A DNA stretch of 32,000 nt from Haloferax volcanii DS2 (GTDB lineage Archaea; Halobacteriota; Halobacteria; Halobacteriales; Haloferacaceae), in NCBI RefSeq assembly GCF_000025685.1, contig NC_013967.1, positions 390,001 to 422,000 of the forward strand, given 5' to 3'. Positions within the stretch are counted from its first letter, which is position 1, and every line of letters starts with the position of its first letter. The notes beneath the pieces were generated by a model. That model was not told the DNA's origin. It did no database searches and saw only the letters and a program-made list of their open reading frames with translations. Of this stretch, positions 3,353 to 18,423 are shown one piece after another. Made by a program: the position numbers and the translations under genes.

Positions 3353-3960
3353 AGTCGGGGTCTCGCGCCCTCGGGGTCGCGGAATCCTCCCCCGGGGCGG
3401 CGCGCGCACCCACAGACGACGCTGACGACGCTCATTTTTCCACAGACCCGTCTCCGGAGAGCGTCCTCTGCGGCGCGGTCGTCCGCGCCGACCGGGTCGT
3501 CGACGGCCTCGCCTTCGAGACGTGCGCCGTCGGCGGCGACGACGCGACCGACGCCATCGCCTCGTTGTACGACTCCCTCGACCGCGAGGACGTACGCTAC
3601 CTGCTCGTCTCCGGCATCGCTCCGGCGTGGTTCAACCTCGTCGACATCGACCGCCTCGCCGCGGCCCTCGACCGCCCGGTCCTTTCAGTCTCTTTCGAGG
3701 AGAGCGAGGGGCTCGAACCCGCGCTCACCGAGCAGTTCTCGGGCGCGGCGCTCGACCGACGACTCGCCACGTATCGCGCAGCTCCGCCCCGCCGACCCGT
3801 CGAGGTGAACGGGGAGACGGTGTTCGTCCGGGCCGCCGGCTGCGACGGCGACGAGGCCGCGCAAGTCGTCCGCGGCTTTACCCCGACCGGCGGCCGCCCC
3901 GAGCCGATTCGCGTGGCCCGGATGGCGGCCCGCGCCGCGCGACGCTTCGCCGGGGATTAA
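3349..3960 (+). CDS. DUF99/UPF0215 family protein (family labelled 'endonuclease dU' in some annotations)
   Basis: 203 aa. The N-terminus MKSGSRALGVAES matches the family's usual start, and there is a central LLVSGIAPAWFNLVDI segment. The GTG start at 3349 overlaps the preceding stop as GTGA. Confidence 0.7.
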   Translation: MKSGSRALGVAESSPGAARAPTDDADDAHFSTDPSPESVLCGAVVRADRVVDGLAFETCAVGGDDATDAIASLYDSLDREDVRYLLVSGIAPAWFNLVDIDRLAAALDRPVLSVSFEESEGLEPALTEQFSGAALDRRLATYRAAPPRRPVEVNGETVFVRAAGCDGDEAAQVVRGFTPTGGRPEPIRVARMAARAARRFAGD

Positions 3961-7883: not shown

Positions 7884-8543
7884 ATGAGCACGACACAGCC
7901 GCCCGAAGAGACCCTCGCCGACGTGGTGATGGTCGACTACGGGCTCGGAAACCTCCGGAGCGCCATGCGCGGGCTCGAACGCGCGGGGGCGAACGTCGTC
8001 ATCTCGGACGACCCCGCCGACTTCGACGACGCCGACGGCATCGTTCTCCCCGGCGTCGGCGCGTTCTCCGAGGGGATGGAAAACGCCGGACCGTTCCGCG
8101 AACCGCTCGCCGAGGCCGCCGCCGACGGGACGCCCGTCTTCGGCATCTGTCTCGGGATGCAGATGCTGCTTACCTCCTCCGAGGAGGCCGACCACGCCGG
8201 CGAGGGCGAAGTCGAGGGGCTCGACTTCATCCCCGGCCGCAACGTCCGGTTCGACGAGGGACAGAAGGTCCCGCACATGGGCTGGAACGAACTCAACGTC
8301 CAGCGCGACCACCCGCTCGTCGAGGGCGTCGACGGCGAGTACGCCTACTTCGTCCACTCCTACTACGCCGACCCGGACGACGAGGGCGCGGTCGTCGCCT
8401 CGACCGACTACGGCGTGGCGTTCCCCGCGGTCGTCGCCAACGAGGCGGGCACCGTCTTCGGCACGCAGTTCCACCCCGAGAAGTCCGGCGAGACCGGGCT
8501 GACCATCCTCCGCAACTTCGTCGAGTTCTGCGCGGAGCGATAG
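7884..8543 (+). CDS. hisH: imidazole glycerol phosphate synthase glutaminase subunit (HisH)
   Basis: GATase motifs LPGVGAF, GICLGMQ, HSYY and FHPEKS. ATG at 7884 (MSTTQPPEETLADVVMVDYG). The track's 67-aa upstream extension runs through the A/T-rich promoter region. Confidence 0.9.
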   Translation: MSTTQPPEETLADVVMVDYGLGNLRSAMRGLERAGANVVISDDPADFDDADGIVLPGVGAFSEGMENAGPFREPLAEAAADGTPVFGICLGMQMLLTSSEEADHAGEGEVEGLDFIPGRNVRFDEGQKVPHMGWNELNVQRDHPLVEGVDGEYAYFVHSYYADPDDEGAVVASTDYGVAFPAVVANEAGTVFGTQFHPEKSGETGLTILRNFVEFCAER

Positions 8544-8597
8544 GCCGAATCTGCCTGCCCCGACGGTCTTTTGTCGCCGCTTCGTGAAGGGGTGCCC

Positions 8598-9404
8598 ATG
8601 CAGGCAGTCACGCTCGGTCCGGCGGGCACGTACTCCCATCGCGCCGCCCGCGCGGTCGCCGACGACGTCGCCTTCCGAGAATCGGTCACGTCTATCGTCC
8701 AAGCGGTCGCCGACGGGTCGTTCGAGCGCGGCGTCGTCCCCATCGAAAACAGCATCGAAGGGAGCGTCACCGAGAGCCTCGACGCCGTGGCGAACTCGGA
8801 CGTGAGCGTCGTCCAGGAAATCGTCACGCCCATCCGCCACGCGCTGTTGGCCCAGAGCGCGAACTTCGACGTCGTCGCCAGCCACTCCCAAGCGCTCGCG
8901 CAGTGTCGGACGTACCTCGAAGAGAACTACCCCGACGCGAAACTCGAAGCCGTCGCCAGCACGGCCCGCGGCGTCGAGCGCGCCCGCGCCGACCCGACGG
9001 TCGCGGGTATCGGCCACCCGGACAACGTCGGTGACGACCTCGAAATCATCGCCGAGGACATCCAAGACCAGTCGTCGAACGCCACCCGGTTCCTCGTCAT
9101 CGGCCCCGAGTCCGCCCGCTCGGACGCCGGCGGCAAGAGTTCGCTCGTCGTCTATCCGAACGCGAACTACCCCGGTCTCCTCTTGGAACTGCTCGAAGCG
9201 TTCGCCGAACGCGACATCAACCTCTCGCGCATCGAGTCGCGGCCGAGCGGCAACCGCCTCGGCGACTACCTGTTCCACATCGACGCCGACGCCGGTCTCT
9301 ACGAGGAGCGGATGCAAGGGGCGCTCGAAGAGGTGGAGGGCATCGCCAGCAACGGCTGGGTCCGCGTCCTCGGGTCGTACGACACCCGACACGTCCTGTA
9401 CTGA
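8598..9404 (+). CDS. pheA: prephenate dehydratase (PDT plus ACT domain)
   Basis: N-terminal LGPAGTYSH, the TRF motif (NATRFLVI) and the ACT-domain ESRP motif (LSRIESRPS). ATG at 8598. Confidence 0.85.
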   Translation: MQAVTLGPAGTYSHRAARAVADDVAFRESVTSIVQAVADGSFERGVVPIENSIEGSVTESLDAVANSDVSVVQEIVTPIRHALLAQSANFDVVASHSQALAQCRTYLEENYPDAKLEAVASTARGVERARADPTVAGIGHPDNVGDDLEIIAEDIQDQSSNATRFLVIGPESARSDAGGKSSLVVYPNANYPGLLLELLEAFAERDINLSRIESRPSGNRLGDYLFHIDADAGLYEERMQGALEEVEGIASNGWVRVLGSYDTRHVLY

Positions 9405-13606: not shown

Positions 13607-13697
13607 TCCGGCGCGTCTCGGCGCGCCGCGACCGAAACGCCGCGCTTCGCCCGACCCACGACGCGGCTCTCGGGGCGACCGCTCCTCTCCGTCGCTC

Positions 13698-15299: not shown

Positions 15300-16973
15300 T
15301 CACATCGCGCCGCCCATACCGCCCATGCCGCCCATGCCACCCATGCCGCCGGGTGCGCCGCCCTCTTCGTCGTCGTCGCCGCCGGTGGAGAGGTCACCGG
15401 CCGCGATGATGTCGTCGATCTTGAGGACGAGGTTCGCGGCTTCGGAGGCGGAGGCGACGGCCTGCTCTTTGGCGTGGGCCGTCTCGACGACGCCGGCGTC
15501 GAAGGCGTCTTCGACCTCGCCGGTGAAGACGTTCAGCCCGGCGCGGACCTGCCCGTCTTCGTGGGCCGCGCGGAGGTCGACGAGCGTGTCGATGGAGTCG
15601 AGACCGGCGTTCTCGGCGAGGACGCGGGGGACGAGTTCGAGCGCGTCGGCGTACGCCTCGACGGCGAGCTGCTCGCGCCCGGAGACGGAGTCGGCGTAGT
15701 TGCGGAGGCGCGAGGCGAGTTCGACCTCGATAGCGCCGCCGCCGGCGAGGACGCGGCCGTCGGCGACCGTCGAGGCGACGACGTCGAGGGCGTCCTGAAC
15801 GCCGCGTTCGAGTTCGTCGACCACGTGGTCGGTGGAGCCGCGGAGCAGGAGCGTGACGCCGTGGACGTCGTCGCCGATGCCCTCGACGTAGAACAGCTCG
15901 CCGGCCTCGTCGCGGCGGACGGAGGCGCGACCGAGGACGGCGGCCTCGATGGAGTCGAGGTCGGAGACGACCGCCGCACCGGTGATGTTCTTGAGGAAGC
16001 GGATGTCGGACTTCTTCGTCCGACGGACCGCGAGGATGCCCTGCTTCGCGAGGTAGTGCTGGGCGAGGTCGTCGATGCCCTTCTGGCAGAAGACCACGTC
16101 AGCGCCGGAGTCGACGATTTGGTCGACCTTCTGCTTCAGCTGGGCCTCCTCCTGGTCGAGGAACTTCTGGAGCTGGTCGGGGCTCTCGATGGAGACGTTC
16201 GTGTCGATGTCGGTCTCCTCGACCTCGACGGGCTCGTTGAGCAGCAGCACGTCGGCCTCGTCGAACTGGACCGGCATGTCGTCGTGGACGGGGTCCTTGT
16301 CGATGACGGCGCCGGTGAGGAGTTCGGACTCGGACGCCGAGCGGCCGGTCTGCGTCTCGATGGAGACGTTCTCGAGGTCGACGACGTGGGAACCGTCGTT
16401 GGCCTCCACGGTGACCTGCCGGACGGCGCGGACGATGAGGTCCGCGAGAAGCTCCTTGTTGAGCTCGGAGCTCTTGCCCGTCATGGAGGTCTCGGCGACC
16501 TTCTTCAGGAGTTCCTCGTCGTCGGGGTCGACGCGCTCCGCGATGTCGTCGATTTCCTCGCGCGCCTTCTCGGAGGCGAGGTTGAAGCCGCGGATGATGG
16601 CCGTCGGGTGGATGTCCTGTTCGAGGAGGTCCTCGGCGTTCTTCAGGAGTTCACCCGCGATGGCGACCGCCGTCGTCGTTCCGTCGCCGGCTTCGTCCTC
16701 CTGCGTCTCGGCGACTTCGACGATCATCTCGGCCGTCGGGTTGTCGATGTCCATCTCCTTGAGGATGGTGACGCCGTCGTTCGTGATGGTGACGTCGCCC
16801 ATCGAGTCGACGAGCATCTTGTCCATCCCTTTGGGGCCGAGTGTGGAACGTACCGCCTCGGCGACTGCTCGTGCGGCGCGGATGTTGTACTCCTGCGCGT
16901 CGCGGTCCTTGACGCGCTGTGCATCCTCGCCCATGATGATCATCGGCTGACCCTGCTGCATTCGCTGGCTCAT
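15300..16973 (-). CDS. cct2: thermosome subunit (group II chaperonin)
   Basis: 557 aa with [18 protein letters not shown] and VLAGGGAIE motifs and a C-terminal GGM repeat tail. The symbol comes from my memory of the Haloferax volcanii 557-aa CCT2 and is unverified. Confidence 0.9.
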
Positions 16974-18044: not shown

Positions 18045-18071
18045 GGTCGCAGATGTAGCTTTCCAGAGAAG
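18045..18071 (-). repeat. Head-only fragment of a further tRNA-linked unit
   Basis: Minus strand CTTCTCTGGAAAGCTACATCTGCGACC aligns with the heads of the two full units (CTTCTCTGAAAACTACACTCCGAGC and CTTCTTCCGAACTCAACCCACGTA). No hairpin or pseudo-tRNA end follows it. Confidence 0.5.
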
Positions 18072-18215
18072 CACCAGAAGCGGGAGTTGAACCGCAGTCG
18101 TTCGGCTCATCCGTTCGCCTCGCTCCGTAGTTCAATTCCCTCTCGGAAACGCTTCACGAAAACTGCCACCGCGATGCGCCGAGACGCATCGCTCGGAGTG
18201 TAGTTTTCAGAGAAG
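18072..18215 (-). repeat. tRNA-linked unit B (144 nt): interrupted outer stem, 8-bp hairpin, inverted T-loop hairpin and a diverged tRNA-Ser 3'-end copy
   Basis: It ends (18067-18093, plus strand) in a 23/27 match to the tRNA-Ser 3' end plus trailer. Hairpin: 18171-18178 pairs with 18185-18192 (GCGATGCG/CGCATCGC). Outer stem: 18151-18166 pairs with 18200-18216. Confidence 0.75.
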
Positions 18216-18342
18216 CGCCAGGAGAGGGATTTGAACCTCAGTCGCTTCGCTCCCTGGTTCAAATCCAACTGAGGCGTTCTTCCGAACTCGAAGTCCGCAG
18301 CGCGACGAGACGCGCTGCTACGTGGGTTGAGTTCGGAAGAAG
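18216..18342 (-). repeat. tRNA-linked unit A (127 nt): 13-bp outer stem, 8-bp hairpin, 11-bp inverted T-loop hairpin and an exact tRNA-Ser 3'-end copy
   Basis: 18211-18237 is identical to 18338-18364 (27 nt: the last 22 nt of the tRNA plus 5 nt of trailer). Outer stem: 18277-18289 pairs with 18329-18341. Hairpin: 18297-18304 pairs with 18311-18318 (GCAGCGCG/CGCGCTGC). GGATTTGAACC (18227-18237) pairs with GGTTCAAATCC (18256-18266). Confidence 0.8.
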
Positions 18343-18423
18343 CGCCAGGAGAGGGATTTGAACCCCCGATCCCAGAGGGAACACGCTTTCCAGGCGTGCG
18401 CCTTACCGCTCGGCCATCCTGGC
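18343..18423 (-). tRNA. tRNA-Ser (anticodon GGA), class II with a long variable arm
   Basis: Manual cloverleaf, 81 nt with CCA not encoded. Acceptor GCCAGGA/UCCUGGC plus discriminator G. D arm GCC-GAGCGGUAA-GGC. Anticodon arm CACGC-CUGGAAA-GCGUG. Variable arm UCCC-UCU-GGGA. T arm GGGGG-UUCAAAU-CCCUC. Confidence 0.9.

Follow-up and report, generated by a model that had tools for sequence, protein, structure and literature searches.

Three described systems come closest to the element reported here. Integrative elements leave duplicated tRNA 3' ends at their attachment (att) sites, also where they are cis-mobilisable and lack an integrase or have accreted in tandem, and integrases of the SNJ2 and XerC/D types are examples from haloarchaea. 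Integron attC sites and the folded attP site of CTX phage are recombination sites that are read as folded single strands, imperfect palindromes whose structure and length are conserved above sequence. In Haloferax, a tRNA-like element upstream of 5S rRNA, to which an earlier note on the present locus drew attention, is a substrate of tRNase Z. Here we analysed 32,000 nucleotides (nt) of the Haloferax volcanii DS2 chromosome (NC_013967.1, positions 390,001 to 422,000; the whole stretch is hereafter called the window), in which two structured units, A and B, lie on the minus strand directly downstream of tRNA-Ser(GGA). The units stand in tandem and belong, as types A and B, to a family of DNA-level repeat modules that occurs widely behind the tRNA genes of haloarchaea.

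On the tRNA strand each module is laid out as D-X-I-Y and is followed by the next D. D is a direct copy of the tRNA segment from the T-loop to the 3' end, X a palindrome in the trailer, about 75 nt long, whose centre hairpin GCG-TCTCG(T/G)-CGC is conserved, I an inverted copy of the T-loop and T-stem part of D, and Y a purine-rich spacer built of GAGCGA-type repeats. As at att sites, direct repeats of the tRNA 3' part bracket an insert, the proximal copy completes the tRNA, growth is in tandem beside the tRNA, and the native trailer or terminator is moved downstream. Unlike att-site elements, the modules have an insert of only about 100-165 nt that is non-coding and consists of two alternating palindromes with an inverted core copy; neither integrase nor donor replicon was found for them, and they are conserved across genera, not patchy. 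With attC and the CTX attP they share the imperfect palindrome conserved in structure and length, inverse-core and core boxes (...AAC / GTT...), an unpaired central bubble, a variable terminal hairpin and tandem arrays beside a fixed primary site. They differ from both in having no identified IntI or Xer partner, in cassettes that carry no gene and in the tRNA T-loop as target; their core boxes fit RYYYAAC / GTTRRRY loosely, and recombination as a single strand is for the modules purely conjectural. Like the element upstream of 5S rRNA, the modules contain T-loop and acceptor-strand sequence, probably within a tRNA-containing transcript. Unlike it, they have neither the 5' strands of the acceptor stem and T-stem nor a tRNA-model score, and their T-loop sequence lies hidden in a long duplex formed with the inverted copy.

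No description of D-X-I-Y modules was found in the searchable literature. The genome of Hfx. gibbonsii LR2-5 is reported to contain 11 partial tRNAs, several of them directly adjoining a full copy, which received no further analysis (PMC7921747), and the Haloquadratum genome paper reports prophage-linked partial tRNAs only (PMC3119063). The SNJ2 integrase paper describes 14-bp cores in tRNA-Met and no such palindromes (PMC5861418), and a termination study in H. volcanii reports T-stretches, AGATC and some hairpins as terminators, with the present modules not among them (PMC7237163).

Layout of the array behind tRNA-Ser(GGA)

The array reads tRNA(D1)-X_A-I-Y-D2-X_B-I-Y-D3 and then continues into the native trailer (Table 1). 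This trailer is orthologous to those of three loci fetched for comparison (L006, L001 and L002; all labels of this form denote such loci). The stems that the earlier note had listed are all present in both units. The pairing is that of a long interrupted hairpin, in place of the branched, Y-shaped fold the note had drawn. It had also described one T-loop hairpin per unit; the inverted pairs exist (18227-18237 with 18256-18266, 11/11, and 18082-18092 with 18130-18140), but each I can pair either with the preceding D, enclosing X, or with the following D, enclosing Y.

On the plus strand the centre hairpin reads GCAGCGCG-ACGAGA-CGCGCTGC in unit A and GCGATGCG-CCGAGA-CGCATCGC in unit B. The centre loop has the same orientation in both, so that in terms of the loop type B is not an inverted type A, and an origin of type B by inversion was rejected on reading the two sequences. 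The hairpins and unit A fold with energy z scores of -4.4 to -6.7 relative to dinucleotide shuffles, and the whole of unit B is weaker (z -1.5 and -3.0). Both strands fold about equally well, as is expected of palindromic DNA.

Elsewhere in the window no other T-loop copies were found. A hairpin on the plus strand at 13607-13629, TCCGGCGCG-TCTCGG-CGCGCCGC, has the same centre as unit B (GCGTCTCGGCGC); it immediately follows a TAG stop codon, neither a tRNA nor a T-loop copy is close by, and the 12-mer occurs three times in the window against 0.35 expected.

Table 1 Features of the tRNA-Ser(GGA) array, in window coordinates.
Feature	Position	Strand	Description	Basis
tRNA-Ser(GGA)	18342-18423	minus	Array anchor	ARAGORN; Rfam RF00005, 61.2 bits
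D1	18338-18364	minus	Real tRNA from the T-loop through the 3' strands of T-stem and acceptor stem and the discriminator to the fifth trailer base; direct-repeat reference	Repeat search
X_A	18267-18341	minus	Type A trailer palindrome	Folding z -4.8 and -4.4
X_A outer stem	18277-18289 / 18329-18341	minus	13/13 complementary	Inverted-repeat search
X_A centre hairpin	18297-18318	minus	Loop TCTCGT on tRNA strand	Inverted-repeat search, folding
I_A	18256-18266	minus	Inverted T-loop copy, GGATTTGAACC on tRNA strand; can pair with D1 or D2	Repeat search
Y_A	18238-18255	minus	Short purine-rich spacer AGGGAGCGAAGCGACTGA, 20-nt spacer class	Spacer consensus common to several tRNAs
D2	18211-18237	minus	Direct copy of tRNA 3' part, 27/27 identical to D1	Repeat search
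X_B	18145-18210	minus	Type B trailer palindrome	Folding z -4.7 and -5.0
X_B outer stem	18151-18166 / 18200-18216	minus	Imperfect	
X_B centre hairpin	18171-18192	minus	Loop TCTCGG on tRNA strand	
I_B	18130-18144	minus	Inverted copy of T-loop and T-stem 3' strand, GAGAGGGAATTGAAC on tRNA strand	Repeat search
Y_B	18094-18129	minus	Purine-rich spacer, 37-38-nt class; looks chimeric against the A-B-A' strain	
D3	18067-18093	minus	Older, 85% identical copy of tRNA 3' part, then native trailer CTTCTCTGGAAAGCTAC...	Repeat search

Distribution, geometry and covariation of the modules

Thirty-two loci were fetched via a neighbouring protein, and 21 of these hold tRNA-Ser(GGA). The D-X-I-Y architecture follows the tRNA in 17 of the 21, from Haloferax species, a Haloferacaceae metagenome-assembled genome and Halorientalis, and in each of these loci the distal tRNA copy agrees with the organism's own tRNA variant. 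Haloferax has two types of X, and array composition varies between its species: type A only (L002, L006, L007, L008, L014), type B only (L001, L003, L004, L013, L010), B-A (L011, L015) and A-B-A' (L107, L108), against A-B in the window. A near-identical strain, with an identical neighbour protein, carries A-B-A' where the window has A-B. A metagenome scan with the centre hairpin alone as pattern returned 70 loci, of which about 35-40, on contigs with a GC content of 0.49-0.71, show the full layout; in these, a gene for tRNA-Ser(GGA), Ser(CGA), Gly(GCC), Asp(GTC) or Met(CAT) is followed at about 20 nt by the centre hairpin, in every case on the strand of the tRNA. Three more tRNA genes present by chance on those contigs (Tyr, Val, Val) have module-like flanks too. 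Nearly all haloarchaeal-type matches with upstream sequence on the contig are linked to a tRNA and lie on its strand. The family comprises more than 50 modules behind at least seven tRNA species, with one to three modules per array and direct repeats of 22-59 nt of tRNA sequence. In some taxa (L093, L017, L012) the centre hairpin occurs by itself, with neither I nor D2.

The modules are alike in geometry. The distance from D to I is 93-103 nt in 57 of 58 measured palindromes, and spacer lengths cluster near 20, 28, 38, 49, 57, 71 and 90 nt. All modules have the same pairing profile, namely a T-loop duplex, a bubble, a trailer stem, an internal loop of about 10 nt and the 8-bp centre hairpin; T-loop and T-stem positions are paired in 0.9-1.0 of modules, and the bubble at the acceptor 3' strand in only 0.28. 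The centre hairpin is nearly invariant in its three closing pairs and in its loop, TCTCG(T/G), and covaries in its three outer pairs. The I arm bears the T-stem bases of its own tRNA and tracks even the variants of tRNA-Ser(CGA) (TCACC versus TCCCC), and the tRNA homology of I and of the next D ends at the same position, the 5' edge of the T-loop. Different tRNAs have in common the Y consensus yAGGGAGCGAAGCGAAC.GAGTGAGCG.AGCGACCGTG, with a purine content of 66-69% on the tRNA strand. In L029, L031, L061, L089 and L090 a T-run terminator stands behind the last D and not behind the tRNA, as predicted if the original tail was displaced.

The earlier note had claimed that units A and B keep their structure despite sequence divergence and that three base pairs of the inner hairpin are exchanged with full compensation. 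Both claims are borne out across the family: the three compensated pairs are real and recur in 11, 11 and 7 of 42 sequences as double changes between GC and AU, and the structure is retained across the more than 50 modules just described. The trailers have a median pairwise identity of 0.48, and a trailer pairs best with its own partner arm (7.98, versus 4.82 with the arms of other modules). The further homologs are accessible to a covariance model, which was built from 15 Haloferax modules and finds about 75 sense-strand modules in the comparison loci. In a sense-only alignment of 50 modules fitted to the model, a procedure that makes the numbers lean towards structure, 93.1% of cells are paired (82.5% when shuffled, 33-45% when slid), 16 of 31 pairs have both sides changed (12.6 shuffled, 5-12 slid) and so do 149 cells (43 shuffled, 9-31 slid). 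The compensated pairs of units A and B hold irrespective of that alignment bias. This compensation is what any maintained DNA palindrome would show. A MAFFT alignment of all modules was out of register in the trailers, for which reason RNAalifold recovered the centre hairpin only, and the covariance-model alignment was used instead.

Several arrays carry additional features. In L008 (about 2481-2500) and L010 (about 2761-2780) the distal tRNA copy is broken within the acceptor strand (CCCTCTCC|AACAC...), and an insert of about 1 kb common to the two loci follows the cut copy, which suggests a later insertion into it. In Haloferax larsenii (L013, about 3390-3600) a long CT-rich tandem repeat run (CCCACATCTTCCCACCTCTCCCCTCTCTT...) follows the distal copy. 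In L060 (tRNA-Met) and L065 (tRNA-Ser CGA) the last direct repeat extends well beyond the tRNA tail and takes in the trailer as well as the left half of the centre hairpin; it reaches about 59 nt in L060, and its end follows immediately on the loop TCTCG(G/T)C, sharply in L065 and less sharply in L060.

Strand preference and tRNA likeness of the modules

A functional RNA helix is expected to hold many G-U and few A-C oppositions on the transcribed strand. When X was aligned to itself in 58 distinct palindromes, we counted 2133 Watson-Crick pairs, 99 G-T and 95 A-C (p=0.83), and the isolated mismatches within X stems comprise 11 G-T, 8 A-C and 30 others. By RNAfold energies for D to I, 27 modules fold better as the sense and 29 as the antisense strand, and the mean difference is +0.28 kcal/mol (p=0.74). 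The strand-specific tolerance expected of an RNA hairpin terminator or other structured RNA is not seen in X by any of these three unbiased tests, which weighs against the earlier note's proposal of an RNA processed from the tRNA precursor and favours the recombinase or cruciform DNA site that it had offered as the alternative. Two counts lean the other way. The model-fitted alignment gives 102 G-T versus 23 A-C, where G-U is rewarded by construction, and the Haloferax subset, whose members are not independent of one another, leans to the sense strand in a hand tally (29 G-T versus 13 A-C) and in 10 of 16 modules by energy.

The earlier note had also considered a tRNA-like signal for tRNase Z. 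The T-loop copies begin at the T-loop and so lack the 5' strands of the T-stem and acceptor stem that a tRNA-like fold needs; ARAGORN and the Rfam tRNA model (RF00005) score the true tRNA alone, even at E<=10, and I would compete with the T-arm of the tRNA. Rfam, at the gathering threshold and at E<=10, returned the tRNA and microRNA-type noise only. The module as a bulge-helix-bulge intron was also set aside; in a sketch made by hand only, the pairings it needs are pseudoknotted.

Possible origins of the modules

We consider the modules to be a non-coding, att-type recombination cassette, that is a miniature integrative element, or the fixed remnant of one, since remodelled by homologous recombination; we put the probability of this reading at about 0.4. 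Recombination within the segment from the T-loop to the 3' end would insert the cassette, which would supply the tRNA with a replacement tail (D1) and push the original tail (D2) downstream along with its native trailer or terminator. The site of recombination would be the D:I duplex with X and Y as its caps, and a trans-acting tyrosine recombinase might read this site as a duplex, a cruciform or a folded single strand. Insertion by site-specific recombination is what we infer from the direct repeats of the tRNA 3' part that flank the units, the proximal one completing the tRNA, and from the displaced native trailer or terminator. The cassette is also supported by a centre hairpin and Y common to unrelated tRNA loci and taxa, an I that co-varies with D, the shared T-loop edge at which the tRNA homology of I and D2 stops, the tight D-to-I geometry, the conserved pairing profile, and X helices with neither an RNA wobble nor a strand signature.

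An independent precedent comes from a family of bacterial phages (IMG/VR contigs L117-L190, GC about 0.62), in which inverted and direct tRNA 3' ends form a perfect palindrome. In L119 the palindrome (8780-8837) lies 57 nt from a 279-amino-acid tyrosine integrase (7884-8723, minus strand; PF00589, E=1e-20). The arrangement I-loop-D, made from a tRNA T-loop and 3' end, is like that of the modules; unlike the modules, the phage palindrome is perfect, has a centre of 3-12 nt, stands beside an integrase inside a phage, is bacterial and lacks X and Y. Many of these contigs start or stop near the palindrome, which ARAGORN miscalls as tRNA-Gln on both strands.

The arrays have been remodelled by homologous recombination and gene conversion between copies. 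The only polymorphism between close strains, A-B versus A-B-A', has its end points inside the Y spacers and not at D, as the product of unequal homologous recombination, and A/B hybrids in the sister species L013 and L014 point to gene conversion within arrays. Array order varies between species, and this remodelling accounts for A-B here, A-B-A' in the sister strain and B-A, A-only or B-only arrays in other species.

A number of observations weigh against a cassette, the position of those end points among them. A screen validated on the phage integrase found no tyrosine-recombinase motif pair in the window or in L001-L116, and no integrase was found in a 3.8-kb insert in L011 or in the regions beside the modules in L093 and L039. 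IMG/VR gave zero matches to the tRNA 3'-end core sequence, the centre hairpin and the whole palindrome pattern, the whole array has no match in GenBank phages or PLSDB plasmids, and no clean pair of empty and filled sites was found among the loci compared. All variation in Haloferax could be derived by deletion from an ancestral A-B-A array, near-universal presence at orthologous tRNAs over family-level divergence resembles a retained feature more than an active parasite, and a circle of 130-190 bp is a poor duplex substrate. Finally, the I-Y-D hairpins, whose folded form is a ladder built of G-C rungs and tandem G-A mismatches, are in 44 of 52 cases more stable as the sense than as the antisense strand (p=2e-7). 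Y is thus strand-asymmetric, which could point to a role at the transcript level; the asymmetry is confined to the Y spacer, and the X helices are free of it.

The modules might instead be a resident, non-mobile tandem palindromic repeat that arose by local duplication of an ancestral trailer hairpin and tRNA tail. Such a repeat would be kept by DNA-level processes, for which hairpin-templated correction and gene conversion between copies are candidates, or by a function in cis, such as blocking transcription or replication, insulating, or occluding the tRNA attB against integrating viruses. We hold this to be unlikely, if a serious contender. It would fit the near-universal occurrence at orthologous tRNA-Ser(GGA) loci, the taxa that have the centre hairpin with neither I nor D2, the failure to find an integrase or donor element and the array differences and hybrids, which recombination within arrays explains; hairpins are also able to terminate transcription in Haloferax volcanii (PMC7237163). 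Yet the near-identity of the centre hairpin and Y consensus behind unrelated tRNAs in distant taxa would need transfer between loci or a strong sequence-specific constraint, generic palindrome correction should have removed the conserved acceptor-strand bubble, an RNA terminator hairpin should tolerate G-U where these helices do not, and local duplication does not account for the non-tRNA make-up of Y. Ordinary scars of provirus or plasmid integration, that is functionless attL- or attR-proximal remains left after deletion of the interior, appear distinctly improbable. Integrative elements classically leave partial copies of tRNA 3' ends as their footprint, and Hfx. gibbonsii LR2-5, besides its partial tRNAs, has integrative elements flanked by tRNA remnants (PMC7921747). 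Random deletions, on the other hand, would not yield a palindrome of 93-103 nt and quantised spacers in more than 50 cases at seven tRNA species, and neutral remains would lose the complementarity of their arms and the match of I to the T-stem of each tRNA. Moreover, type A modules are about 85-90% identical across the genus while the flanking intergenic DNA has no recognisable similarity, both as judged by eye.

Least probable in our judgement, if by a narrow margin, is a structured RNA from the 3' trailer of the pre-tRNA, the view that the earlier note preferred; such an RNA might act as a signal for processing or for tRNase Z, as a regulatory RNA or as an RNA terminator. The T-runs after the last copy imply that the modules are probably co-transcribed with the tRNA, and the sense-strand stability of I-Y-D and the two sense-leaning pair counts would agree with such an RNA. 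Against them stand the even pair counts and folding energies over all modules, the construction of the fitted alignment, the dependence among the Haloferax rows, the lack of an Rfam family match and of the 5' strands, and the hindrance to maturation that would follow if the RNA paired with the T-arm of its own tRNA.

Other candidates were tried and rejected. The centre loop fits the nick-site consensus of haloarchaeal rolling-circle plasmid double-strand origins, TCTCGGCnnnCnnnG as quoted in PMC9569500, in part only: type B has TCTCGGC followed by GCA-T instead of nnn-C, and type A and most family members have TCTCGTC. A miniature inverted-repeat or other palindrome-associated transposable element would be dispersed over many unrelated sites and have short target-site duplications; it was dismissed because nearly all matches are linked to a tRNA, the window has no other T-loop copies and the repeats consist of 22-59 nt of tRNA sequence. 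An origin of the palindrome by fold-back copying is disfavoured because all modules, the young ones included, have the same unpaired acceptor-strand bubble. The long Y spacers resemble a GAGCG-rich stretch after mobC in ColE1-type plasmids (L106, Escherichia coli Col-type plasmid NZ_CP128962.1, 1041-1066), and kinship with ColE1 was rejected at 24/26 nt and E=0.8, which is not significant. A Y-spacer motif, GAGCGAAGCGAAC.AAGTGAGCG.AGCGAC, occurs in the viral contigs L103 (3947-3976), L104 (2400-2429) and L105 (1988-2011), where it forms a GC-rich island in surroundings that are AT-richer by eye and where chance expectation is far below 1. In L104 it lies upstream of an open reading frame for a putative terminase large subunit, and none of the three contigs has T-loop copies at the motif.

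The window itself is a chromosomal stretch with a GC content of about 67%, and tRNA-Ser(GGA) is its sole tRNA gene. The genes around the array are housekeeping genes, a HacaP gene lies downstream of the array, and the genes of the window include thermosome, ornithine cyclodeaminase, RidA and cytochrome bd. A neighbouring protein of 132 amino acids is 94-96% identical to its counterparts in Haloferax species and 100% identical in three NCBI assemblies (GCA_000337315.1, GCA_000336795.1 and GCA_040869255.1). A 9-nt tandem repeat at 15309-15350 encodes the GGM repeat tail of the thermosome subunit, an ordinary feature.

It is conceivable, and we think it quite unlikely, that Halobacteria carry a system like that of integrons or CTX phage, in which non-coding cassettes of about 125-190 nt (one tRNA-tail copy counted) recombine into the tRNA T-loop and stack in arrays, as a folded D:I strand capped by X and Y hairpins. 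If so, these would be the smallest integrative elements known, and the conversion of attB into attL/attR-like sites might shield the host from integrating viruses. Partial tRNA copies beside full genes have been noted in Haloferax genome papers without explanation, and here they form one regular, conserved and structured module family. Were the modules recombination cassettes, they would constitute a new minimal class of archaeal mobile or att element and could serve haloarchaeal genetics as ready-made recombination sites; a role in cis at tRNA genes would instead make them a component of haloarchaeal tRNA gene architecture that has gone unrecognised. In both cases the modules bear on tRNA annotation, on the calling of provirus boundaries and on assembly at such loci.

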